A DNA stretch of 64,000 nt from Parcubacteria group bacterium (GCA_041661275.1 JBAZUU010000003.1:25586-89585); one strand, 5' to 3'. Counted from the stretch's first letter, positions 14,890 to 55,860 are shown. Notes: generated by a model not told the origin, from the letters alone. A program made the numbers and translations.

Positions 14890-15522
14890 ATGGCAAGAAA
14901 CACAGATCCAAAATGCAGACTTTGTCGAAGAGCCGGAGAAAAGCTCTTTCTTAAGGGTGACAGATGCGCTTCGCCCAAATGTGGCATCGTTCGAAAAGCT
15001 TATGCTCCCGGAATGCACGGAAAAAAGATGAGCCGCAACAAAAGCGAATACGGAGCGCAATTGGCTGTGAAACAAAAAATCAAAAGAATTTATGGAGTGA
15101 TGGAAAGACAATTTAGAAAACATTTTGATGAGGTGAAGAATAAAAAAGGAATTACCGGAGACCTTCTGCTCGCGCGATTGGAAACACGACTGGATAACGT
15201 AGTCTACAGACTGGGTCTTGCCAGTTCCCGGGCGCAAGCCAGGCAAATAGTAACTCACGGCCTCATCGCTGTTAATGGCAAAAAGGTTGATATTCCTTCA
15301 TATCAGGTGAAAGTTGGCCAGATAATTTCCGCCAGCGCCACTAAAAAAGACAAAAATTATTATAAATCATTGGAACAGGCTATAAAAAACAAGAAAGATT
15401 TTCCAAGCTGGTTGAGTTTTGACGCCGGGAAAATGGAAGGAAAGATTATGTCCTCTCCTACGCGTGACGATATGGGAGTGATGCTGGACGCGCAGGTTGT
15501 CGTTGAATATTATTCCAGGTAA
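14890..15522 (+). CDS. rpsD: 30S ribosomal protein S4
   Basis: N-terminal zinc ribbon CRLCRRAGEKLFLKGDRCASPKC and an S4 domain. Confidence 0.9.
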   Translation: MARNTDPKCRLCRRAGEKLFLKGDRCASPKCGIVRKAYAPGMHGKKMSRNKSEYGAQLAVKQKIKRIYGVMERQFRKHFDEVKNKKGITGDLLLARLETRLDNVVYRLGLASSRAQARQIVTHGLIAVNGKKVDIPSYQVKVGQIISASATKKDKNYYKSLEQAIKNKKDFPSWLSFDAGKMEGKIMSSPTRDDMGVMLDAQVVVEYYSR

Positions 15523-15539
15523 TTAATTATAAAAAAATT

Positions 15540-16505
15540 ATGCAAGCTATTACACTTCCTCAAAAACCGAAGTATAAGGATGAGGGGAATAACATGGGAA
15601 AATTTGAAATTGAAGGATGCTACCCGGGTTATGGAACAACTCTGGGAAATGCGCTTCGACGCGTGCTTCTTTCCTCGCTTTCCGGCGCGGCTGTTGTTTC
15701 TGTCAAAATCAAAGGCGTGAAACACGAATTTTCTACCATTCCTAATGTTCAGGAAGATGTTATTCAGATCATATTAAACTTGAAACAGGTCAGATTTAAG
15801 CTACATAAAGACGAACCAGCCAGGGTGACACTAAAAGTTAAGGGTGAAAAAGAGATAAAGGCCGGAGCTATCACTTGTTCTTCGGATGTGGAAATTGTGA
15901 ATCCGGAAGCGCATATCGCGACCATTACCAGCGCTAAAGGTGAAATTGAAATGGAAATGGAAGTGGAAAGTGGCATTGGTTATGTTCCAGTGGAGCAACA
16001 GGAAAGAGAGAAAAAGGAAGTGGGGACGATCGCGCTTGATGCCATTTATACTCCAATAAAGAGAGTCAACTATACTATTGAGAATATGCGAGTGGGGAAA
16101 AGAACTGATTTTGAAAGGATTAATCTGATCGTGACAACGGATGGAAGCATTGCTCCTCAGGAAGCTTTTTCCAAGGCGGTCAATATTCTTGCGGAACAGT
16201 TTGAGGTATTGAAAAAACTCGATGAAAAAGATGAAAAAGAAGAAGTGATTGAGGAAAAAGACGAAAAGGATGAAAAAGTCGAAAAAGAGGAAAAAATTGA
16301 CGATCCGAAAGAAGTTTTAGTCACCGACCTCAAAAGTCTTTCTACCAGAACTTTGAATGTTCTGGAAAAAAGCAAAATCAAGAATCTGGGAGGAATTTTA
16401 AAGCTCACCGAAGATCAGCTGAATGATTTGGAAGGAATGGGAGGCAAGGGGATAAAGGAGATAAAAAAAGCTATTGGGGATTATGGATTTAATCTTAAGA
16501 AGTAA
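15540..16505 (+). CDS. rpoA: DNA-directed RNA polymerase subunit alpha (with acidic KDE-rich linker insertion)
   Basis: GYGTTLGNALRRVLLSS is the alpha NTD motif. The CTD follows a low-complexity EKDEK linker. Start may be the ATG at 15594. Confidence 0.85.
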   Translation: MQAITLPQKPKYKDEGNNMGKFEIEGCYPGYGTTLGNALRRVLLSSLSGAAVVSVKIKGVKHEFSTIPNVQEDVIQIILNLKQVRFKLHKDEPARVTLKVKGEKEIKAGAITCSSDVEIVNPEAHIATITSAKGEIEMEMEVESGIGYVPVEQQEREKKEVGTIALDAIYTPIKRVNYTIENMRVGKRTDFERINLIVTTDGSIAPQEAFSKAVNILAEQFEVLKKLDEKDEKEEVIEEKDEKDEKVEKEEKIDDPKEVLVTDLKSLSTRTLNVLEKSKIKNLGGILKLTEDQLNDLEGMGGKGIKEIKKAIGDYGFNLKK

Positions 16506-42384: not shown

Positions 42385-42460
42385 AAGTTTTATATATATA
42401 GTAATTTAATAATCTCATAACCATATTTAAAAATCAAATACTTATTTTTATGACGGGCTA

Positions 42461-42488
42461 CCTGACAACGCGCATGCGCGTTGTCAGG
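42461..42488. promoter_or_regulatory. Perfect 28-bp palindrome cctgacaacgcgcatgcgcgttgtcagg upstream of proS
   Basis: A 14-bp inverted repeat with no spacer, 77-104 bp upstream of the proS start. Confidence 0.45.
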
Positions 42489-43332
42489 CTTGATTTCAAT
42501 AGATCGCATATTACTTTCCCAAAGATATTATGCCGTTTTTCAATGGTACCTTTTTGGGGATATCAGTGCTGTTGGTGAGTCGATGATAGAGAAGAATCCA
42601 CATTTTTTCTCTGTCGAGTTCTTTGTGGAAGACGAAGAAGTCTAATAGACAACACTCATCTTCAACAAAACATCCAGCGTATGCCAACACTTTTCCGCAT
42701 CCACCGACTACAACCTGACAGTTAGTATGTCGAATATCGCGCGGCCTTCTTTTTGTGGATGCCTCGTCGTTTTGGAGCAGTTTGCATACCTGACGTGACT
42801 GTGACCAGCTGGGCTTTTTGATCCGTGCCATTGATATTTCTCCTAGTCGCTGAGTTTTGGTTGATCGTTACTTCTGGAAATACCACAGTTTTTTTCTTGT
42901 TTCTATTGAAATTAAAGAACTAAAAAACAACCCCTCCTGAGGTCGTTCATCTTATTCTCTATTGTCCTAAAAATTAGGCTCTACGAAACAACCTCAAAGC
43001 GGGGGTTATTTCTGGTCGCGGGCTTTTGATTGTCGCTAATGTCTTCATGATTTTAGTATAGAGCGGGTATGTGGTTTTTGTCAAATTTCCAAGGCTAAAT
43101 TTAATCTGAAAGAGTCAGTGGATAAAAATAATAGTTGTTATTCAAAAAAGAGCGGCATACCCCTTAAGATTGTCAAAAGAAAATTTAAGGATTGTCTTTT
43201 AGTAACGGATGGTTCAGGTGATTGTTGCGGGGCAAAGTTAGCGCGCATACCTTGTATTTTGATTCAGCCCAGAAAAATCCCGTTATTTTTATTTGATAAA
43301 CAAGCGAAAATGTGTCATTATGGGGTAAATCA

Positions 43333-43605
43333 ATGAAAAAAGGAAATAATAAGATTATTATTTATACGACTGATGACGGTAAGGCGAAGATTGAGGTGAA
43401 ACTGGATAATGAAACCGTTTGGCTAACGCAGAAGCAGATGGCGGAGCTTTTTAATTGTAGCGTGGAAAATGTTATTTTTCATTTGCAGAATGTGCTTGAA
43501 AGCGGTGAAATAAGGGAAAAAGCAACTACTAAGGATTCCTTAGTAGTTCAAAAAGAGGGAAGCCGCACCGGGTTTATCAGGCTATTTTTCCATTTAAATA
43601 TATGA
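43333..43605 (+). pseudogene. RhuM-family (virulence/Fic-associated) N-terminal fragment, about 90 aa (full-length about 330 aa)
   Basis: IIIYTTDDGKAKIEVKLDNETVWLTQKQMAELFNCSVENVIFHLQNVLESGEI matches the RhuM N-terminal domain. Confidence 0.4.
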
Positions 43606-43615
43606 TTAGAATAAT

Positions 43616-45782: not shown

Positions 45783-47114
45783 ATGTTAAAAGTACTGAAG
45801 ATGTCAATGATTTTGGTTTGCTCGATTTTTTTTGTCACGTCAGTCGATGCCGGCGGCAAGCCGGAAAACAGGCCGGCTCCAGCGCCAAGAGCAGCTCCTG
45901 CGCCTCGACAACAAGCGCCAAGACAGCAGATGGCACCAAGGCAACAAGCGCCAAGACAGCAGATGGCACCAAGGCAACAAATGGCGCCAAGGCAAGCGCC
46001 CCAGCAGCGTCCTCAGATGCAGCAGCAACGTCCACAGGGTTTCGGGCAACAGAAATCCTTCGGCAATCAGGGATCTGCTGGCAATAGATTTGGCAACCAG
46101 GGAGCCAATGATCGAGGTAATAGATTCGGTCAGCAGGGATCCGGAAAAGCCGGTAGTACAGGAAGTAGATTTGGCAACCGGGGATCCGACGGTAGCAAAT
46201 TCAGTCAGCAAGGAACTGGCAAGTCTGGCGACAAAACCAGTAGCAAATTTGACCATCAAGGTGCCCAGGGAACTGGAAAGGCCGGTAGTAAATTTGGCCA
46301 GCAAGGAACTGGTAAAGCCGACAGTAGATTTGACAGGCAAAAAACCGGAAAATCTGGCAACAAGCTTGGAAAAACCGGTGAAAAATCCAGTGTCCAGGGT
46401 GCTGGCAAAGGTAAGCAGCCTGACACGGGAAAAATCGCCTCGGACAAAAACAAGCCGGGTGGCGAGAAGATCGGCGGTAAGAATCAGCCGATTGCCGGAA
46501 AACCATCTATGGATGGCAAAAAGCCTATGGACGGAAGAATGTCCGGCCAGAAAATGAACAGACCCAACAGATCCGAGCTGGGCGAGAAAATGAAGAGATC
46601 GCCCAACAAAGAGGCTCTTCGCGACGCGAAGATGGGGCGAAAAGCCGAGCGCGCGAAATTCAGGGACGATCCTAAGCATCACAGACTCAGAGAGCATGAG
46701 CACTCGATGGTGCGCAGTAGCTTTGAATCGCATTCCTGGAGTTACTCAGAATATTCCTACACCTCCACCACTTTTTATGAATCATATGGATATGCACCAG
46801 CACCGTGGTGCTTCGAACTGGCGCCGTATTACGGCGTTTGGGACACAACGTATCTTGGATTCGTTGTAGCCAATGCCGTCGAAATGGAAAGTTCCATTTT
46901 TTATTACCATCACAGAGGGGAAGAGGAGTTGATGGCATGGCGCGCAGAAATGGATCGATTGGCTCAGCAGGATGCTGAACTGGCCGCGCAACTAGCGGTG
47001 CTGGATGAACAAGCGCAGCTGCTGGCAAGCCAAGGCATTGCGGTCAACCCAAACTATGTTCCTGATGCTCCTGTTTTTGCTCCGGAAATTGTGGAGCAAA
47101 TGCAATTAGAATAA
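45783..47114 (+). CDS. Secreted low-complexity repeat protein (APRQQ and FGQQGTGK repeats)
   Basis: Signal peptide MLKVLKMSMILVCSIFFVTSVDA. Tandem peptide repeats. GC-rich relative to the window. Confidence 0.55.
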   Translation: MLKVLKMSMILVCSIFFVTSVDAGGKPENRPAPAPRAAPAPRQQAPRQQMAPRQQAPRQQMAPRQQMAPRQAPQQRPQMQQQRPQGFGQQKSFGNQGSAGNRFGNQGANDRGNRFGQQGSGKAGSTGSRFGNRGSDGSKFSQQGTGKSGDKTSSKFDHQGAQGTGKAGSKFGQQGTGKADSRFDRQKTGKSGNKLGKTGEKSSVQGAGKGKQPDTGKIASDKNKPGGEKIGGKNQPIAGKPSMDGKKPMDGRMSGQKMNRPNRSELGEKMKRSPNKEALRDAKMGRKAERAKFRDDPKHHRLREHEHSMVRSSFESHSWSYSEYSYTSTTFYESYGYAPAPWCFELAPYYGVWDTTYLGFVVANAVEMESSIFYYHHRGEEELMAWRAEMDRLAQQDAELAAQLAVLDEQAQLLASQGIAVNPNYVPDAPVFAPEIVEQMQLE

Positions 47115-47156
47115 CAAGCTCTTCTGGTTTCAGTGAGAACTGGATCTGAGCAATAT

Positions 47157-47200
47157 AAACCCCCGGCTTCGCCTTGTGCGAGATCGGGGTCCTTTTTTTC
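47157..47200 (+). terminator. Rho-independent terminator
   Basis: ccccggcttcgccttgtgcgagatcgggg hairpin followed by tcctttttttc. Confidence 0.55.
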
Positions 47201-47266
47201 AATTTAAAAACCCCGCCGACGTAGCGCCGATGGGGGTAGTGCATTGGCAGCCGATGGGGGTAGTGA

Positions 47267-47875
47267 TCAGCGACGTTTGCCGCTGGATTTGCCATGGATC
47301 CTTCTATCTGAATCTTTGATCGCTTGCGCGGGAAACCTCTTGCCATCGATCCGGCAAAACGATAAACCGTAGCCAGTCGACGAGTCGCTGGCACAGCAAT
47401 TGAATTTCTTGTCCACGAAAAGAAGAACCGGCAATTTACAGGCATCGGCTGGTCCGATGTCCAGCAATTCCATAAACTTCTTCTCCGCTTCGGAGCGCGA
47501 TGTTTCGATGTCGATATCCGTAATGATGATTCCGAAAGGATATTTACTGTTTTTGAGAGCATATATTCCATAGCTCTCATTTTCAAAAAGACATGGCTCA
47601 TCGACGTTACAGTCGATAAACTGGCAGAAATCGGTCACCGACACCGCGCCACGGCCGAAATTGAAGTTGACTCTTTCTCCGGTTGGCGCTGGCGTCGGGC
47701 TTTGGGCGCGCTGTTGTTGGCGCGCATTTTCGTTTTCAATAATGGTGCCGAATACTCCGCCGATAATTCCACTAATCGCATTGGCGGTATCCTCATCCAA
47801 TCCAGCCCTGGCAGGTGGCGCCAAAAAGGCGAAACAAAGGGACACAACGAAAAGCACGGTCAAAATTTTTTTCAT
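47267..47875 (-). CDS. Secreted protein (signal peptide, Cys-containing)
   Basis: MKKILTVLFVVSLCFAFLAPPARA signal. GC-rich. Confidence 0.5.
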   Translation of the reverse strand: MKKILTVLFVVSLCFAFLAPPARAGLDEDTANAISGIIGGVFGTIIENENARQQQRAQSPTPAPTGERVNFNFGRGAVSVTDFCQFIDCNVDEPCLFENESYGIYALKNSKYPFGIIITDIDIETSRSEAEKKFMELLDIGPADACKLPVLLFVDKKFNCCASDSSTGYGLSFCRIDGKRFPAQAIKDSDRRIHGKSSGKRR

Positions 47876-48034
47876 GACTCTCTCCTTGTTTATAGGTAGT
47901 AGGAACTATTGAAATGCGATAAAAAATGATCTTTCGACTTTTGCTCAATGTATCACCGCTTGGAAAAAGTGTCAAACGAGACAATCCGTGGTTATGATAA
48001 TTTTAATTTTCTTACGGTTCATAGCCTTGCTTAT

Positions 48035-48105
48035 TTGACGAACACCACTGATTTTCTCTATAATACACTCATGCAGGAACTTTGGTGGAAAAGGACAAAA
48101 AATAT
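48035..48105 (+). promoter_or_regulatory. Promoter (TTGACG-N18-TATAAT) plus partial copy of the repeated RNA element, serving as 5' leader of the DUF4143 gene
   Basis: ttgacg 48035-48040 and tataat 48059-48064. Transcribed sequence acactcatgcaggaactttggtggaaaagg is homologous to 49463 and 55428. The spacer contains the aacaccactgatt repeat core. Confidence 0.45.
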
Positions 48106-48165
48106 GGAATAGAATTTAATAACCTATACTTGACTAAAATATACAATTATAATAAACTATAGTCT

Positions 48166-49434
48166 ATGAAAATAGATAAGGAACAATTAGTGAGAATAAT
48201 CGATTTTTGGCGGGAAAACGCGCGGGAAAATAACCTTTTTGACCGCGATGTTTTGAATGGAATCGATTTGAAAAGCAAAGAAATCATTGATTTGGTCGGG
48301 CCGAGACGAAGCGGAAAATCGTCGGTATTAAAACTGATTATAAAAAAAATGGCGCTGGGAAACGATTTCTTATATCTCAATTTTGAGGATCCGTTTTTTG
48401 TTGAAAATAACAATCCTCAAATAATAGAAGAGTTTGTAAATGTTTACAGGGAGTATTTTGACGCCAAGGTAAAATATCTTTTTCTTGATGAAATACAAGA
48501 AATAAAAAATTGGGAAAAAGCGGTGAGAAAATTAAGAGACGGGGGAAAATACAAAATATTCATAACCGGTTCCTCATCCAAATTATTGAGTCGGGAGCTG
48601 GCAACTCTTCTGACCGGACGGCACCTGTCATATCGCGTTTTTCCTCTTTCTTTTTCTGAATTTCTAAAATTTGAAAAGGTGGAAATAAGGAACAAGCGGG
48701 ATCTGATTCTTAAGGATAAATTGTTGCAAAAGAAATTTGATCAATATCTTGATCAAGGAGGATTTCCTGAACCGGTTTTGGAAAAAAATCATGAGCTCCT
48801 CAAAAATTATTTTTTTGATATTTTGGAAAAAGATATCATGGCTCGCCATGAAGTGAGGGACAGGATAACACTGGAAAAGATGGCTGTTTTTCTTTTGACT
48901 AATTCGGCTAAAATCGTTACCCAGGAGTCTTTGAAAAATAATTTTAATATTTCTTTTGAAACTGTTTCAACTTATCTGGAATATTTCAAAAACGCGTTTT
49001 TATTGTTTGATCTTATGCAATTCTCATATTCTCTCAAAAAACAACAGAAGGCTTTCAAGAAATTTTATGCCGTGGATACCGGACTGGCCGGAAACGTGAG
49101 CTTCAGGTTTTCCGAAGATAAAGGCAGAATATTGGAAAACGCGGTTTTTTTGGAATTAAAAAGAAGAGGCGGTGAAGTCTATTACTATAAGACGAAGGAG
49201 GGGCTGGAAACAGACTTTTATGTGAAAAACTCGGCGGGCGGAAATCTTATTCAGGTTTCCTGGAGTATTAGTGAAAAAGACGTCAAGGACAGGGAGATAA
49301 AAAACATATTCGCCGCCATGGATGAGTCGAAAATAAAAAAAGGTCTGATGCTTACTTATGGGGAAAATGATATAATAAAAAAAGATGGCAAGGAAATAAG
49401 AGTAATGCCGGCGTATCGCTGGATGCTGGAGTAG
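48166..49434 (+). CDS. ATP-binding protein, DUF4143/AAA_14 family
   Basis: Walker A GPRRSGKSS and Walker B LFLDEIQ are typical of archaeal-type ATPase (DUF4143) proteins. Confidence 0.6.
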   Translation: MKIDKEQLVRIIDFWRENARENNLFDRDVLNGIDLKSKEIIDLVGPRRSGKSSVLKLIIKKMALGNDFLYLNFEDPFFVENNNPQIIEEFVNVYREYFDAKVKYLFLDEIQEIKNWEKAVRKLRDGGKYKIFITGSSSKLLSRELATLLTGRHLSYRVFPLSFSEFLKFEKVEIRNKRDLILKDKLLQKKFDQYLDQGGFPEPVLEKNHELLKNYFFDILEKDIMARHEVRDRITLEKMAVFLLTNSAKIVTQESLKNNFNISFETVSTYLEYFKNAFLLFDLMQFSYSLKKQQKAFKKFYAVDTGLAGNVSFRFSEDKGRILENAVFLELKRRGGEVYYYKTKEGLETDFYVKNSAGGNLIQVSWSISEKDVKDREIKNIFAAMDESKIKKGLMLTYGENDIIKKDGKEIRVMPAYRWMLE

Positions 49435-49469
49435 TTCAATTTTATTAATAGGAGTGCTATAATACAACT

Positions 49470-49587
49470 ATGCAGGAATTTTGGCAGAAAAAGATAAAAA
49501 TACATATAATATTTGAGTCGCTGGAGAGTTATAACGAAAGCGTATATTTTTAGATTTTGAAAGCCGTCCATTTGGACGGTTTTTTTG
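49470..49587 (+). ncRNA. Candidate small RNA (copy 1 of repeated element) with own promoter and intrinsic terminator
   Basis: Promoter ttcaat-N17-tataat (49437-49463). Terminator ccgtcc-attt-ggacgg plus ttttttt (49564-49587). About 85% identical to 55435-55551. Confidence 0.45.
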
Positions 49588-49669
49588 TAAAAAAACAGAC
49601 AATTTAGAAGTTGACAAATAAACCAAACAGGTATATAATAACCAGTTATCATAACGTCTTTAAATAACT

Positions 49670-50269
49670 ATGAAAAAGTCAAAAAGAACCATCGAACAAG
49701 ATAAATTTTCAGTGGAAATATTGGATCATAATAGCAAAAGAGTTGTGGATGAATTGGTGTGTCTTGAAGAAAAATGCTTTCCGTTGGAAATGAGAAATCC
49801 TTCGAGTGATGATTATTATTCTGCCGTTCTCAACGACCCGAAAAACATCAGTCTACTTCTAAAATACAAAGGAAAAGTTGTTGGTTTTTTGGTAGCCAAG
49901 GAATATAAGCGAGTTTATGATTCTTTGTCTAACCATGACCCCGATCTTCGGGAAAATAAGAAAAGACTCTTTTATGTCGACCTCATTCAGATCCATCCTC
50001 GCTTCAAAATTAACGGAGGGCTTAGTCTTCTTGTTTCCAAGCTGATTGAAAAGGCTCTGGAAAAAGATCTTCAGGGATTTTGCCTGCATGCTCGAAAGAA
50101 AAATGGATTGAGCCAATTTTTGCAGAAAATTTTTGATTGCAAAAGACTTCACTCTATCGACAACTGGCTGGGATTTGGCGAACAGTTTGATTATCTCGAA
50201 TTTGCTATAAATAAAAAGATCGTAAAAAAAATAATCGGAAAACTCAATCCGATACACGCGCTGAATTAA
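49670..50269 (+). CDS. GNAT-like acetyltransferase family protein (weak)
   Basis: 199-aa ORF with a weak acetyl-CoA-binding-like segment. Confidence 0.3.
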   Translation: MKKSKRTIEQDKFSVEILDHNSKRVVDELVCLEEKCFPLEMRNPSSDDYYSAVLNDPKNISLLLKYKGKVVGFLVAKEYKRVYDSLSNHDPDLRENKKRLFYVDLIQIHPRFKINGGLSLLVSKLIEKALEKDLQGFCLHARKKNGLSQFLQKIFDCKRLHSIDNWLGFGEQFDYLEFAINKKIVKKIIGKLNPIHALN

Positions 50270-50281
50270 TGAATTAAACTT

Positions 50282-51583
50282 ATGCGAATATTAGTTGTTT
50301 CAATGGATGCGTCAGGGGGGGATTTGGCCTGGAGGCTTCAGGAGGAGGGCAATGAAGTGAAAACCTATATCCACAAAAAGGCTCACCAAAAACATTACGA
50401 CGGAATTTTAGAAAATAAAATCAAGGATTGGGAGAAAGAACTTCACTGGGTCGGGAAAAAAGGACTCATTGTTTTTGACTATTCTGGGATGGGCGAAATC
50501 CAGGACAGTCTCCGGAAAAAAGGATATAATGTCGTCGGCGGATGCCGGATCGGCGATCTTCTGGAAGGTAATAGAAAATTTGGACAAAGGATTTTTTCCC
50601 AAGTGGGGATGGAGATAGAAGCTTCCCGGACTTTTTATTGTATTGATGAAGCGATAGATTTTATCCGGAGGAACCCGGCCGCCTGGGTTATCAAACAAAA
50701 TGGCCAGCTGGACAAAGATTTAAATTATGTAGGGAAGCTGGAAGATGGGCGGGACACTATCGCGGTTCTGGAACTTTATAAAAAAATTCTTCCCAAAACT
50801 TTTGTTAATCTGGATCTCCAAAAAAGGATAGACGGAGTGGAAATCGGAGTCGGCCGCTATTTCAACGGCAAGGATTGGGTTGGTCCGATCGAATTCAACA
50901 TTGAACACAAATCACTTTTTCCTGGAGGCTTGGGACCAAAGACATATGAAATGGGAACGATTATGTGGTACTCTGATAATGAGAAGAATAAACTCTACCA
51001 GGCGACAACAGCGAGAATGAAAAAATTTCTCCAAAATATCGGATTTATCGGAGACTTTGAGATAAATTGCATAGTTAGCAAAGATCACATTTTCCCTTTG
51101 GAAGCGACTACCCGTTTTGGCTATCCCGCACTGCAACTGCAGGCTCAATTCCATCAGTCGCCGTGGGGAGAATTTCTTTTGGCTCTGGCCAGAGGAAAAA
51201 AATATGATTTGAAATGGAAAAAGGGGATGGGGATTATAAATCTGGTAGCTGCTCCCCCATTTCCTTATCATGCCAGAGAACCAAGGCAATCTTCCGAGGG
51301 GATGGAAGTGATTATTGATCCAAAAACTTTCAAGCATAAGAGAAAAAATATCCATCTGGAAGAAGTTTATCAGTCAAAAAAGGACGGAAAACTTTATGTT
51401 TCTTCTGAGCAAGGATACGTTCTTCATGTTTCGAGCGTCAAAGACACGCTTTTCGAAGCAAGAGCAGAAGTTTTGGAAATTATAAAAGACATTACTATTC
51501 CCAAAATGTTCTTCCGAAACGACATCGGCGCCAAATTCCTGAACGAAGAAAAACCGAAGTTGAAGAAGTGGGGGTATATTTAA
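50282..51583 (+). CDS. ATP-grasp enzyme, phosphoribosylamine--glycine ligase (PurD)-like
   Basis: MRILVVSMDASGGDLAWRLQEEGNEV resembles the PurD N-terminus (MKVLVIGSGGREHALAWKL). Size 433 aa. Confidence 0.45.
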   Translation: MRILVVSMDASGGDLAWRLQEEGNEVKTYIHKKAHQKHYDGILENKIKDWEKELHWVGKKGLIVFDYSGMGEIQDSLRKKGYNVVGGCRIGDLLEGNRKFGQRIFSQVGMEIEASRTFYCIDEAIDFIRRNPAAWVIKQNGQLDKDLNYVGKLEDGRDTIAVLELYKKILPKTFVNLDLQKRIDGVEIGVGRYFNGKDWVGPIEFNIEHKSLFPGGLGPKTYEMGTIMWYSDNEKNKLYQATTARMKKFLQNIGFIGDFEINCIVSKDHIFPLEATTRFGYPALQLQAQFHQSPWGEFLLALARGKKYDLKWKKGMGIINLVAAPPFPYHAREPRQSSEGMEVIIDPKTFKHKRKNIHLEEVYQSKKDGKLYVSSEQGYVLHVSSVKDTLFEARAEVLEIIKDITIPKMFFRNDIGAKFLNEEKPKLKKWGYI

Positions 51584-51668
51584 ATTTGCTCAATTTTAAG
51601 GGTCGAAGTATTGCGTGATTATTGCGCGATTCTTGCGCGATTCATGAAAATCGTGTATAATAGAGATA

Positions 51669-52723
51669 TGCTAAAACCACAATATAAACTCACCAACAAA
51701 ATACTTAAAAACCTGACGGATATCGCTGAAGCAAAGGGGATTATTGAAAAAGCTAAACTTCTCCCCAGGCACGAACTAAAGCTCAAGCGTCAGGCGATGA
51801 TAAGGATGTCTCATAGTTCCACGGCTATTGAAGGCAATATTTTGGACATCCGCCAGGTTGAGGCTCTCTATGCTAATAAGAAAATAGACGCACCGGATCG
51901 GGATATTTATGAAGTAAAAAACTATTTGGAAGCTCTGAAATATATAGAGAAGTTTGTCAAAAGTGGAAAGCCGATTTCAGTAAAAGTGTTACTCAAAATT
52001 CATTCGCTGGTAACCAACAAAACTTTGCCAGTCGAGCAGTCGGGTCATTTTCGCCAAAGTCCGGTCTATGTCGTCAAAAGAAGATTGGGATTTCCGGACG
52101 AAATAGTTTATGCCGGGCCTGTCGCGGCGAATGTTCCTTATCTTTGTAACGATTTGATTGAGTGGATAAACAAAAGCGAAAAAGAAGAAACAAATCCGGT
52201 TATTGTGGCCGGAGTAACTCATTTGGAAATTGCGGCCATCCATCCGTTCAGCGATGGTAACGGAAGAACGGCCAGAGCTTTGGCTACTTTGATATTATAT
52301 AAGCGAGGCTATGATTTTAGACATTTATTCGCTTTGGAAGATTATTATAATAAAGATCTGCCAAGCTATTACAAGGCCATAAATGTCGGTAAAAATTATG
52401 AAGAGAGAAAGACAGAAATTACCTATTGGCTGGAATATTTTGTGGAGGGTTTTAGAGACGAAATTATGAGCGTCAAAAATCAAGTTACAACACTAGCTCT
52501 TAAAAAGGTAGATAAAAATATTGGAAGTCAGGTGTATCTAACGCCAAAGCAACAGCAGATATTGGATTTTGTTGATCAGCTGGGAAGAATAAAGGTTAGT
52601 GATGTAGTGGATATTTTGAAATGTCCTCAAAGAACGGCTCAGCTGGAACTACAGAAACTCAAAAAGCTGGGGATTATCAAACAAGTCGGTAAAGGTAAGG
52701 CGACTTATTACAAGTTGAAGTAA
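51669..52723 (+). CDS. Fic family protein with C-terminal winged-helix domain
   Basis: HPFSDGNGRTAR Fic motif. Start ATG 51669 (MLKPQYK) is preceded by tataat and a triplicated ttgcgcgatt repeat. Confidence 0.75.
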
Positions 52724-52791
52724 AAATATGCGAGAAGTTGCTTATTGCAGGGCTGCTATTTTTCAGTAGAATTAATATAAAAGTGCGAGAT

Positions 52792-53542
52792 AAAAGGGGT
52801 CAAGTACCTTTTCTATCAAACAGTAATATGAGCAATATGATATACTCAACACATGGCTAGAATTCCAAGAAATCCAATAGGTGATGTTGCCTATCATGTG
52901 CTTAATCGTGCCAATGGGCGAGAGCAGATTTTTAATAAAGAAAAAGATTACGAAGCTTTCATAAAAATCATTCAAGAAGCCAAGGAAAAATATCCAGTGG
53001 ATATTTTTACCCTTTGCCTCATGTCCAATCATTGGCATTTTTCTTTGAGTGCCAAAAAAGGAGAAAATATTTCCAATTTCATGCGCTGGGTAACTCACAC
53101 CCATACTCAACGTTATCATTCCCATTACAAAACTATCGGTTACGGCCATCTCTATCAGGGTAGATATAAATCTTTCCCTATTGAAAAAGATAACCATTTT
53201 CTCCAAGTTTGCCGCTATATTGAAAGAAATCCGATCAGGGCTGGATTAGTAAGAAAAGCTCAGAATTGGAAATGGTCAAGTCTTTGGATAAGAAAAAATG
53301 GAACCAAAGAACAAAAAGCATTATTATCAGACTGGCCGGTAGAAATGCCGATTGGATATCTGGAATGGGTTAATGTTTTAGATAAAAACGAAGAAGACAA
53401 GCTAAACAAAATACGATATGCTCTCAAAAGAGGGTGCCCCTATGGCGAAGATAGCTGGGTTAAGAAAACAGCAAAAAAACTAAACTTAATTTCCACATTA
53501 ATTCCCAGAGGCAGACCGAAAAAAGGTACCTGACCCCTTTTT
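52792..53542. mobile_element. REP-RAYT-REP unit: IS200-like HUH Y1 transposase gene flanked by inverted REP-like hairpins
   Basis: Left aaaaggggtcaagtaccttttc (52792-52813). Right gaaaaaaggtacctgaccccttttt (53518-53542) is its imperfect reverse complement. Each is itself a small hairpin. Confidence 0.55.
52853..53533 (+). CDS. REP-associated tyrosine transposase (RAYT) / IS200-like Y1 HUH transposase
   Basis: HuH motif LMSNHWH and catalytic Tyr region YQGRYKS. 226 aa with a C-terminal extension typical of RAYTs. Confidence 0.65.
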   Translation: MARIPRNPIGDVAYHVLNRANGREQIFNKEKDYEAFIKIIQEAKEKYPVDIFTLCLMSNHWHFSLSAKKGENISNFMRWVTHTHTQRYHSHYKTIGYGHLYQGRYKSFPIEKDNHFLQVCRYIERNPIRAGLVRKAQNWKWSSLWIRKNGTKEQKALLSDWPVEMPIGYLEWVNVLDKNEEDKLNKIRYALKRGCPYGEDSWVKKTAKKLNLISTLIPRGRPKKGT

Positions 53543-53554
53543 CTCTCTCCCCAA

Positions 53555-53720
53555 GAAAGCTATCATAGAGGCGTTGAAAAAAAGCGGTATTAAAAAAGGA
53601 GAAAAACTGTATGATTTAGGTGCGGGAAATGGAAGGATTTTAGTGATTGCTGAAAAAGAATTTGGCTTAAAATCAATTCTGTCCAAATTTGTTAGGATTG
53701 ATACTAGTGTATGTTTAATT
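53555..53720 (+). pseudogene. Class I SAM-dependent methyltransferase N-terminal fragment (motif I) with no start and truncated after about 55 codons
   Basis: Translation KAIIEALKKSGIKKGEKLYDLGAGNGRILVIAEKEFGLKS contains the DLGAGNG SAM-binding motif. Confidence 0.35.
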
Positions 53721-53858
53721 TAATTTTGCTGATTAATAAGTTACAAATAGGCCTGTTTATTAAACTTTATTTATTTTTTCGACCATCGAAATTAAATTAA
53801 TAACGCACTAGTCCTATAATTATTGTTAAATTCAATAAATATTATTACAATCATCAAT

Positions 53859-55181
53859 ATGCCAAATGAAATATACGCAGGTCACATCTATCCAAACGAA
53901 CTTCTTCGTCCTCCTAAAGATAATATTCCTTCATTAGAACACGTATATTTTGTTGTAGGTACAGTTATGAGTGACATTGGTAAAGGATGGCTTTCAGGTT
54001 CGATAGCTAGTACTTTAGATAATCCCCTGATAATAAAAATAGATCCGATGCTAAATCAAAGTTTTCCTGAAAACGTAGGTATCCCTATGGACAATACACA
54101 CGTAACAGATGACTTTAAAACATATCAGCGTTTAGGATTAGAGACAAAAGTTGATAACAATATCGTAATGGGACAGATATGGAGAGAATATCTAAGTCAT
54201 TCCCAAATTCCTATGCAGATAACCGAAGGATCAATTAAAAAACAGACTTATGCGGATGTGGCGGATTATTTTTCAGATAAACTACTCAATATGATTAAAT
54301 CATCTCATGCTAAAAATGTTGTAATTGAAATTGGAGGTACGCCAGTAGATTCAGAACAAGATGTACTTCCATCCACTTTCCGTTTAATGGGGATCAAGAC
54401 GAATGTTGTACCTGAGCTCATTCTTCTCTCATATTTTGAAACGAGAGAGGATAATGCTAACGATGGGAAAAAAGGTTTGAAAACTCAAATTATTCGACAA
54501 GGAATACGCGATGCAACCACAAAATATGCAGGATTACCATTAAAATCTGTATTTGTACGAAGAAGGCGCGTTTCCGAGTCAATTGTGTCTGTATCATTGC
54601 AGGATGAATTATTGAGGGTGGCATATGAGACACAAATATCTCCACAAAAATTAACACTTCTTGAAAATTATCAAGATGTTACAGAATTAATGAAATATAT
54701 ATCGGAATCTGGTATTTTTAAAGAAATTGATAAACCACTGATGGTTAGTGCATGTATCTTGGGAATACCATGTAGGTTTGATGGAGCATCAAAACCAGTG
54801 GGAGATCGAAAAATGAATGTTATTTTATCAAATGGATCTGCTTTAATTTTATGTCCTGAAATATTAGCAGGTTTACCCACACCAAGAGGACCGTATAATA
54901 TAACTTCAGGTAGTGGAGAAGATGTTTTAAATGGAATTGCAAAAGTAGTTGATAACGATGGAAATGACGTGACGGATCTATTTATAAAAGGTGCAGTAGC
55001 AACATTAAAAGCACTTATGAATAGGGGTATTAAAAAAGCATATTTACGTGAAGGTAGTCCATCATGTGGAATAAATAGAATTACTACAAAATTGGATGGA
55101 AAAGTATCTGCTATGGGTGTAACGACTGCTTTACTACAACGCTGGGGTATAGAGTGCATCTCATCTGATGCAGTTGTTTAG
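53859..55181 (+). CDS. Fusion protein: CTP synthase N-terminal (amidoligase)-like domain plus DUF523 (TudS-like, Cys-rich) domain
   Basis: N-terminus VYFVVGTVMSDIGKGWLSGSI, IIKIDPMLN and VVIEIGGTPVDSEQD parallel CTP synthase motifs. C-terminus ACILGIPCRFDGASKP...ILCPEILAGLPTPRGP matches DUF523. AT-rich codon usage. Confidence 0.45.
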   Translation: MPNEIYAGHIYPNELLRPPKDNIPSLEHVYFVVGTVMSDIGKGWLSGSIASTLDNPLIIKIDPMLNQSFPENVGIPMDNTHVTDDFKTYQRLGLETKVDNNIVMGQIWREYLSHSQIPMQITEGSIKKQTYADVADYFSDKLLNMIKSSHAKNVVIEIGGTPVDSEQDVLPSTFRLMGIKTNVVPELILLSYFETREDNANDGKKGLKTQIIRQGIRDATTKYAGLPLKSVFVRRRRVSESIVSVSLQDELLRVAYETQISPQKLTLLENYQDVTELMKYISESGIFKEIDKPLMVSACILGIPCRFDGASKPVGDRKMNVILSNGSALILCPEILAGLPTPRGPYNITSGSGEDVLNGIAKVVDNDGNDVTDLFIKGAVATLKALMNRGIKKAYLREGSPSCGINRITTKLDGKVSAMGVTTALLQRWGIECISSDAVV

Positions 55182-55434
55182 GACATATATGGATAATTCA
55201 GTAATACTTTGTAGCGCATGTTTGGGATGGAAAACATGGTGTTTTTGCAGTAGCTACTAGCGAGAAAATAACTAGCTCGGTCACTTTCTCGTTAGAACCT
55301 ACCGTATGGCAAGAGCCAAGCTATCCAGAGCCAGGAGAAATCGTTCTTCTTGGTAATCTTCGTAAGAAGCGGGCTTGATCAAAAATGAGCCACATGTGTT
55401 TGACTAACAGAGCTTGTTTTTCGTATAATACACT

Positions 55435-55551
55435 TATGCAGGAAATCAGGAATAAGAAGATAAAAATACATACAATATTCGAGTCGCTCGAGAATCAAAA
55501 CGAAAGCGTATATTTTTAGTTTTTGAAGGCCGTCCATTGGGGCGGTTTTTT
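55435..55551 (+). ncRNA. Candidate small RNA (copy 2 of repeated element) with promoter TTGACT-N18-TATAAT and intrinsic terminator
   Basis: ttgact 55399-55404 and tataat 55423-55428. Terminator gccgtcc-attg-gggcgg plus ttttttt. Its G-U replaces the A-U of copy 1, keeping the stem. Confidence 0.45.
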
Positions 55552-55573
55552 TGTCGGAAAAGATTGAGGATTG

Positions 55574-55860
55574 ACCCCGCACTAACTTTTGTTTGTTATG
55601 CATTACGTTTATATTATACAGAATGAATTAGCCGAATTATATTATGGTTGTACCGGTAATCTTAAGAAAAGATTTTTTGAGCATAACAACAATAAATCCT
55701 TTTCTACCAAAAGTCATAAGTGGAAACTGATCTATTACGAAGCATATACGGCCGAGGAAGACGCATGGAATAGAGAAAAACAGCTAAAGCAATATGGCCA
55801 AGCCCTGGGTCAGTTGAAAAGGAGACTTAAAAAATCTTTGAACAAAAGTTAGTGCGGGGT
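55574..55860. repeat. Perfect 20-bp inverted repeats (accccgcactaacttttgtt / aacaaaagttagtgcggggt) bracketing the GIY-YIG gene
   Basis: 55574-55593 and 55841-55860 are exact reverse complements. The right copy contains the stop codon. Confidence 0.6.
55598..55852 (+). CDS. GIY-YIG nuclease family protein (UPF0213/YhbQ-like)
   Basis: YVYIIQNE...YYGCTGNLKKRFFEHN is the GIY-YIG motif with conserved R and E. Confidence 0.65.
   Translation: MHYVYIIQNELAELYYGCTGNLKKRFFEHNNNKSFSTKSHKWKLIYYEAYTAEEDAWNREKQLKQYGQALGQLKRRLKKSLNKS

Follow-up and report, generated by a model that had tools for sequence, protein, structure and literature searches.

A 64,000-nt stretch of DNA from a Parcubacteria group bacterium (GCA_041661275.1, JBAZUU010000003.1:25586-89585; hereafter the window, with positions counted from its first letter) carries a short element of ~150 nt in 2.5 copies. 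Each full copy has its own promoter and its own intrinsic terminator. This raises the question what is made from it: a small RNA (sRNA), a small protein or no product at all. Judged from its sequence, we consider it about an even chance (probability ~0.5) that each full copy is an autonomous, so far unannotated gene for a leaderless microprotein. The evidence is suggestive on the whole, not decisive. The genes nearby and their homologues indicate a Moranbacteria-like host with low G+C content from the candidate phyla radiation (CPR).

The two full copies, B (49437-49595) and C (55399-55561), lie on the plus strand and consist of a promoter, ~117 transcribed nt and a terminator. They align without a single gap over 138 nt (49458-49595 and 55424-55561) at 85% identity. 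Copy A (48034-48116, plus strand) is truncated and located upstream of a DUF4143 ATPase gene. Its positions 48034-48101 are 72% identical to C, and the identity to B is 78% over 55 nt. The 21-mer TATAATACANNNATGCAGGAA is common to all three copies, i.e. it occurs three times in the window (0.09 expected), while AACGAAAGCGTATATTTTTAG is found twice as compared to zero expected occurrences. The likeness of B and C starts at the promoter and ends right after the T run of the terminator. Hence the duplicated unit is exactly one transcription unit. Exact-pattern scans with TATAATACANNNATGCAGGAA returned 33 matches in genome contigs and 51 in metagenome contigs, all of them by chance given their unrelated flanks and open reading frames (ORFs). 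Pattern scans of viral contigs gave nothing or chance matches only.

The promoters are of the sigma-70 type. Copy C has TTGACT-18-TATAAT (55400-55429, plus strand) with 11 of 12 consensus matches, and so has copy A with TTGACG-18-TATAAT (plus strand; -35 at 48035-48040, -10 at 48059-48064, followed by an ATG at 48071). The -35 region of copy B (TTCAAT, 49435-49440) overlaps the end of the DUF4143 gene and is weak, agreeing with the consensus at 3 of 6 positions and remaining below the scan threshold. Sequence reading and pattern match identify an extended -10 (TGcTATAAT, 49455-49463, plus strand) in this copy instead. On the minus strand, a single, weak promoter-like site (9 of 12 matches) was found over the unit.

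Both full copies end in an intrinsic terminator on the plus strand, with a G+C-rich stem of 6-7 bp to which A-U pairs are added, a loop of 4 nt and a run of seven U. In copy B (49559-49586) the stem is formed by GAAAGCCGTCC and GGACGGTTTTT around the loop ATTT, in copy C (55525-55552) by GAAGGCCGTCC and GGGCGGTTTTT around ATTG. A simple terminator scan missed both of them because the stem extension consumed part of the T run. Downstream of copy B follows a separate promoter P2 (TTGACA-17-TATAAT, 49611-49639, plus strand, 12 of 12 matches) for an operon starting at 49670 which encodes a GNAT-like and a PurD-like ATP-grasp protein. P2 is kept in all relatives considered below, irrespective of the presence of the element. 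The preliminary description of this locus had proposed two full copies of ~85% identity, each a discrete promoter-to-terminator element, and a third, partial copy from which the DUF4143 ATPase gene obtains its promoter and 5’ leader. This outline is borne out, as are the intrinsic terminators, both of which fold as it predicted. Its near-consensus sigma-70 promoters are found in C and not at the -35 of B.

An ATG is located exactly 6 nt past the -10 in A, B and C as well as in the closest related element (L085, see below). In copies B and C it opens an ORF of 27 codons plus TAG on the plus strand (49470-49553, MQEFWQKKIKIHIIFESLESYNESVYF, and 55436-55519, MQEIRNKKIKIHTIFESLENQNESVYF), the stop of which lies 8-9 nt before the G+C core of the terminator. 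We thus propose the following mode of expression. The sigma-70-type promoter would set the transcription start ~7 nt past the -10, right at the A of the ATG, whereby C would use both -35 and -10 and B the extended -10. The predicted transcript of ~117 nt would possess neither a 5’ untranslated region (UTR) nor a Shine-Dalgarno sequence. Ribosomes would initiate at the 5’-terminal AUG and yield a soluble peptide of 27 amino acids, and the intrinsic terminator, its core 8-9 nt past the stop codon, would end the transcript. The predicted peptide has a basic N-terminal half (KKIKIH) and an acidic, Ser-rich C-terminal half (FESLE..ESVYF). Its tryptic peptides include IHIIFESLESYNESVYF and IHTIFESLENQNESVYF.

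Is leaderless initiation plausible in such a host? A -10-like hexamer is present 5-9 nt upstream of the ATG in 14 of the 49 window genes of at least 150 amino acids (~29%), as compared to a background of ~0.7 per offset at other distances. Examples of gene starts with this layout are 8040, 9470, 25137 (minus strand), 34439, 38218, 51668, 52853, 53859, 59201, 60272 and 61961. In several cases, e.g. 38218 and 60272, the full promoter TTGACA-17-TATAAT is present. Leaderless messenger RNAs (mRNAs) thus seem to be frequent in this Moranbacteria-like genome which, if so, bears on the annotation of such genomes. Mycobacterium tuberculosis actively translates hundreds of short ORFs that lack a leader (PMC9094748). 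They share with the unit a start codon at the predicted transcription start, the lack of a Shine-Dalgarno sequence, a length below 50 codons and the fact that gene callers miss them. In contrast to those ORFs, which were mapped by Ribo-seq and Ribo-RET, the present ones are known from sequence alone. They moreover differ by forming a monocistronic, duplicated cassette with its own terminator in a low-G+C CPR host, and no homologue of the peptide was found.

A free-standing unit of the same architecture and unrelated sequence is located at 42974-43084 (minus strand) within a gene-poor gap of 1.2 kb (42385-43615). It consists of TTGACA-17-TATACT, an ATG 6 nt further on and a 24-codon ORF, MKTLATIKSPRPEITPALRLFRRA, with a possible hairpin and T run ~40 nt beyond the ORF. 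A blastn match of copy A at 43094-43043 (minus strand, 71% over 52 nt) was considered as a further family member and discarded, as it comprises a consensus promoter and an unrelated leaderless ORF of 24 codons.

The loci of relatives (designated by L numbers) were retrieved via the PurD-like ATP-grasp gene (50282-51583) downstream of copy B. L085 (ATP-grasp 85% identical to that of the window) contains the complete element between the terminator of the upstream gene and the operon promoter (nhmmer E = 1e-28). A unit of promoter, short ORF and terminator is also present in L086-88 (ATP-grasp 82%, E = 1e-5) and L089 (78%, E = 3e-7), where the DNA match comprises only the 3’ part and the terminator. 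L093 (74%) shows a partial DNA match (E = 5.5e-5) with an ORF that falls short of the terminator. The site exists without the unit in L090, L091, L094/95 and L096/97 (75-84%) as well as in L103 and L104 (63-64%). The family is narrow, patchy and restricted to one clade. Between copy B and the L085 unit the identity is 77.5%, similar to that of the flanking genes (74.0% and 79.9%) and unlike that of the adjacent spacer (52.2%). The unit is thus under selection.

The plus frame is open from the transcript start to near the terminator in all five units compared (B, C, L085, L086 and L089), while the remaining plus frames all contain stops. After dinucleotide shuffling of each unit such an ORF arises in 0.5-2.2% of cases (0.5-1.2% for the copy B unit). 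The ORF of L086 starts with GTG 6 nt past an extended -10 and that of L089 9 nt past an extended -10. They comprise 22-24 and 21 codons, respectively, with stops 11-12 nt before the terminator core. The L085 peptide, MQEIGNKKAYKHIIIFESLENYSVSVYFSF, has 30 amino acids. Relative to B and C, L085 carries an insertion of 3 nt which keeps the frame (H-IIF versus HIIIF) and a deletion of 1 nt, the sole effect of which is an extension by two codons (SF) up to a new stop. B, C and L085 share an identical core, IFESLE. Both nucleotide changes of C within this core (TTT to TTC, CTG to CTC) are synonymous, one of them disrupting the only small hairpin in this part. A small protein had been considered at this locus before, albeit on the minus strand. 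That strand is discounted below, and it is the plus-strand leaderless ORF, which was missed at that time, that is open in every unit compared.

The RNA structure was evaluated in silico on the same five units. RNAalifold predicts the terminator as the only helix, with no pair changed on both sides. The transcript body without terminator is not more structured than shuffled sequences (z-scores of +0.8, +1.0, +2.1, -0.5 and +0.7), hence it suits leaderless initiation. A small hairpin (CGAG/CUCG) in C is disrupted in B by a substitution which is silent in the plus frame. Scanning the whole window against Rfam (release 15, gathering thresholds) returned four transfer RNAs (tRNAs) only. The unit, which the preliminary description had considered a candidate sRNA family, matches no Rfam family at threshold. 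With permissive thresholds, the region 47900-55700 gave Phe_leader (23.1 bits, threshold 55, E = 2.4) and RNAI (19.9 bits, threshold 47, E = 3.7) as best hits. A supposedly compensatory change in the terminator stem had been taken as a sign of selection on RNA structure. This does not hold. The pair is U-A in B and U-G in the other four of the five units, i.e. the change is one-sided and G-U is the commoner state. As the changed pair belongs to the terminator, selection there would not tell an sRNA from an mRNA anyway. A structured sRNA is not supported by these data.

Several points weigh against a selected microprotein. The same site lacks the unit in the close relatives L090, L091, L094/95 and L096/97, and the DNA match of L086 and L089 is limited as described. 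The peptides of L086 and L089 show no statistically significant similarity to the profile of the B, C and L085 peptides. This profile gave no match at E <= 10 among 5.8 billion protein clusters, in which ORFs below 30 amino acids are rarely called, and the peptide matches nothing in Pfam or NCBIfam. The ratio of non-synonymous to synonymous change (pN/pS) is 0.36 for B-C, 1.06 for B-L085 and 0.57 for C-L085, based on few sequences, and 7, 6 and 9 variable sites fall on codon positions 1, 2 and 3, which is no clear coding signature. A neutral ORF would survive in ~31% of cases at 12 substitutions and in ~20% at 16-17, and therefore the persistence of the ORF among B, C and L085 is weak evidence. 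The criteria of the shuffling test were set after the data had been seen. Finally, organisms capable of leaderless initiation may translate any RNA with a 5’ AUG, the peptide being irrelevant (PMC9094748).

The unit might instead give rise to a trans-acting, largely unstructured sRNA of ~117 nt, with AUGCAGGAA at the 5’ end and GAGUCGCUGGAGA as pairing seeds and the ORF incidental. We regard this as the main rival, possible if rather doubtful. In its favour are the strong promoter of its own and the canonical terminator, a transcript size typical of sRNAs and gene copies duplicated like those of sRNA families. The unit is conserved to the same degree as the flanking genes, yet without codon periodicity. 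Two blocks shared by B and C (16 and 21 nt) are identical at every nucleotide and free even of synonymous changes, and the motif TATTTT(T)AG in the DNA falls into differing frames in B, L085 and L086. The overall layout, i.e. a free-standing promoter, ~100-120 nt, a Rho-independent terminator, paralogous copies and possibly a small ORF, likewise resembles trans-acting sRNA genes. In contrast to those, only the terminator stem-loop is conserved here and without a compensatory pair, no Rfam family applies and the ORF fills the transcript from the first base on. The body folds worse than shuffled sequence, a transcript-spanning ORF is present in every unit (0.5-2% of shuffles), and the indel between B/C and L085 preserves the frame. 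Moreover, the 64-kb window holds no target complementary to the core motif in excess of chance, with 4 matches (3.35 expected) of which the two self-matches alone are exact. Both products may also be combined in a dual-function RNA. SgrS/SgrT, RNAIII/delta-haemolysin and SR1/SR1P are examples of dual-function sRNAs.

Alternatively, the duplicated promoter and terminator could form a cassette without any product, acting as mobile promoter or transcriptional insulator and maintained for the promoter activity it lends, as copy A does to DUF4143, and for the separation of adjacent operons. Putative mobile promoters are defined as stretches of >50 nt with >=80% identity upstream of non-homologous genes (PMC3488235). 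B and C fall within this definition (upstream of GNAT-like and GIY-YIG genes) and A versus B just below (78%, 55 nt), whereby the class is an operational one and silent on the product of the unit. Like those highly similar non-coding stretches, copy A has been recruited as promoter by an unrelated gene, the DUF4143 gene. The patchy presence among close relatives and the position of the unit in a variable region would fit as well. Unlike mobile promoters, the unit reaches far past the promoter and includes a conserved ORF of 84 nt as well as a terminator, so that the full copies end transcription and do not feed the gene behind them. A cassette of this kind leaves unexplained why the 85-nt body is conserved at 77-85% (adjacent spacer 52%) and why the ORF is maintained. 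The downstream operon has no need of the promoter of the unit since it possesses its own 12/12 promoter in every relative. We regard the cassette as unlikely.

Even less probable is a translation-coupled attenuator in which the ORF serves as leader peptide and the ribosome at its stop covers the 5’ arm of the terminator, resulting in read-through. A short ORF followed by an intrinsic terminator upstream of an operon is indeed what leader-peptide attenuators such as the Phe leader (RF01859) look like, and the unit bears a weak Rfam resemblance to the latter. In all five units the stop codon lies 2-12 nt before the G+C core of the terminator. As terminating ribosomes protect ~12 nt past the stop codon (PMC9094748) they would overlap the hairpin. 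Four lineages moreover have the unit immediately in front of the GNAT-like/ATP-grasp operon. An antiterminator is missing, however, as no alternative pairing is predicted, and the Phe leader score of 23 bits is far below the threshold of 55 (E = 2.4). Past the terminator the operon possesses its own consensus promoter, and relatives lacking the unit keep the operon unchanged. The gene behind copy C, of the GIY-YIG type, is unrelated, and no regulatory run of codons for one particular amino acid is found.

A protein gene on the minus strand was rejected. The respective ORFs of 98 and 74 amino acids (MDGxQxLKIYAF...) remain open in both full copies and encode similar-looking peptides, which is why they had been put forward as an alternative in the preliminary description. 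This likeness follows from the 85% DNA identity, nearly all differences being non-synonymous in that frame, and neither the starts nor the ends of the two ORFs correspond to each other. L085 has a stop in place of the Met codon as well as a shifted frame, several stops occur in L089, and a profile search of the 5.8 billion clusters revealed no called protein alike. Transcription of such a gene would in addition have to pass the terminator hairpin and run against the promoter. We consider it hardly conceivable.

Three further classes were tried and discarded. A type I toxin-antitoxin system, with a hydrophobic membrane peptide and an antisense RNA overlapping its gene, does not apply to a charged peptide with a longest hydrophobic run of 5 residues, and the sole promoter-like site on the minus strand is the weak one mentioned above. 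A graspetide-type precursor of a ribosomally synthesized and post-translationally modified peptide (RiPP) would need the ATP-grasp protein as a partner. The GNAT-like/ATP-grasp pair persists without the ORF in L090, L091, L094-97, L103 and L104, and copy C lies elsewhere, away from this pair, which counts against a graspetide as well. The ATP-grasp protein itself matches the PurD-type domains GARS_A and GARS_C of Pfam. Repetitive extragenic palindromic (REP) or REPIN elements of a RAYT would be short palindromes in many dispersed copies, often paired in inverse orientation close to the RAYT gene. They were dismissed since the 64 kb contain no more than two copies of the hairpin, which are in direct orientation and belong to the unit. 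An IS200-like Y1 transposase of 226 amino acids, the size of a RAYT, is encoded at 52853-53533 and in L085 at 15208-15888, downstream of the ATP-grasp gene in question. No REP array is obvious nearby.

The candidate leaderless microprotein gene is of interest because small proteins and sRNAs of CPR bacteria (Patescibacteria) are essentially uncharted and gene callers skip ORFs of less than 30 codons. The locus offers a concrete candidate with precise predicted transcript ends and two peptide variants. It does not overturn current understanding, and the unit is confined to a narrow clade. In a wider and, to our mind, improbable scenario the cassette would be a lineage-specific CPR microprotein mini-gene which spreads autonomously, whose promoter is captured by incoming genes, in this case the DUF4143 ATPase gene inserted into it, and whose translation, ending less than a ribosome footprint away from the terminator, tunes read-through into the adjacent operon.

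How did the split arrangement of copies A and B arise? Between them lies the AAA_14/DUF4143 ATPase gene (48166-49434, plus strand; Pfam AAA_14 4.9e-36, DUF4143 4.4e-25). It is missing from the same site in L085, as judged by synteny with orthologous flanking genes, and no gene is found there between the element promoter and the ORF body. Looking up the exact sequence of the DUF4143 protein gave no record. The element likeness ends at ~48116 in A and begins at ~49457 in B. From TTTGACG to TATAAT, copy A differs from the element promoter of L085 at 4 of 31 bases (~87% identity), whereas the promoter of copy C is far less similar to it. Copy A thus probably represents the ancestral promoter of the element. 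Its ORF is decayed to 13 codons, MQELWWKRTKNME, by a stop at 48110-48112 (codon 14), and a frameshift is present in addition. Such decay after truncation is expected if the frame mattered only while complete. At present copy A provides a promoter and a 95-nt leader for the DUF4143 gene.

The simplest reading of these data is that an ancestral copy was located between the terminator of the upstream gene and the promoter of the GNAT-like/ATP-grasp operon, as is still the case in L085, and that the DUF4143/AAA_14 gene inserted into it. Copy A would then correspond to the original promoter, which is now used by DUF4143 and still carries a decayed remnant of the ORF, copy B to the remainder of the unit, expressed from its extended -10, and copy C to a dispersed duplicate. 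If so, the split of A and B by DUF4143 is a neat example of promoter capture by an inserted gene.

Relative to L085, the window has three extra genes in this region (45783-49434). Apart from the DUF4143 gene these are a low-complexity, Q/G/K-rich ORF of 443 amino acids (45783-47114) with nested periodic repeats of 33 nt and 93 nt and a local G+C content of 0.50 (0.35-0.42 around), and an ORF of 202 amino acids (47267-47875, minus strand). As all three are absent from the syntenic region of L085 the spot is seemingly prone to insertions.

Two neighbouring genes close to copy C deserve mention. The ORF at 53823-55181 fuses an N-terminal CTP-synthase domain (amidoligase) with a DUF523/2-thiouracil desulfurase domain, an unusual combination. 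The GIY-YIG nuclease-domain gene (55589-55852, 87 amino acids, Pfam E = 1e-12) is bracketed by a perfect inverted repeat of 20 nt, ACCCCGCACTAACTTTTGTT / AACAAAAGTTAGTGCGGGGT, at 55574-55593 and 55841-55860, which has no further occurrence in the window. On its right side, the arm of the repeat abuts the -35 of the promoter of the next gene. Gene and repeat together could represent a small mobile or homing cassette, or the repeat could form a stem enclosing the transcript.

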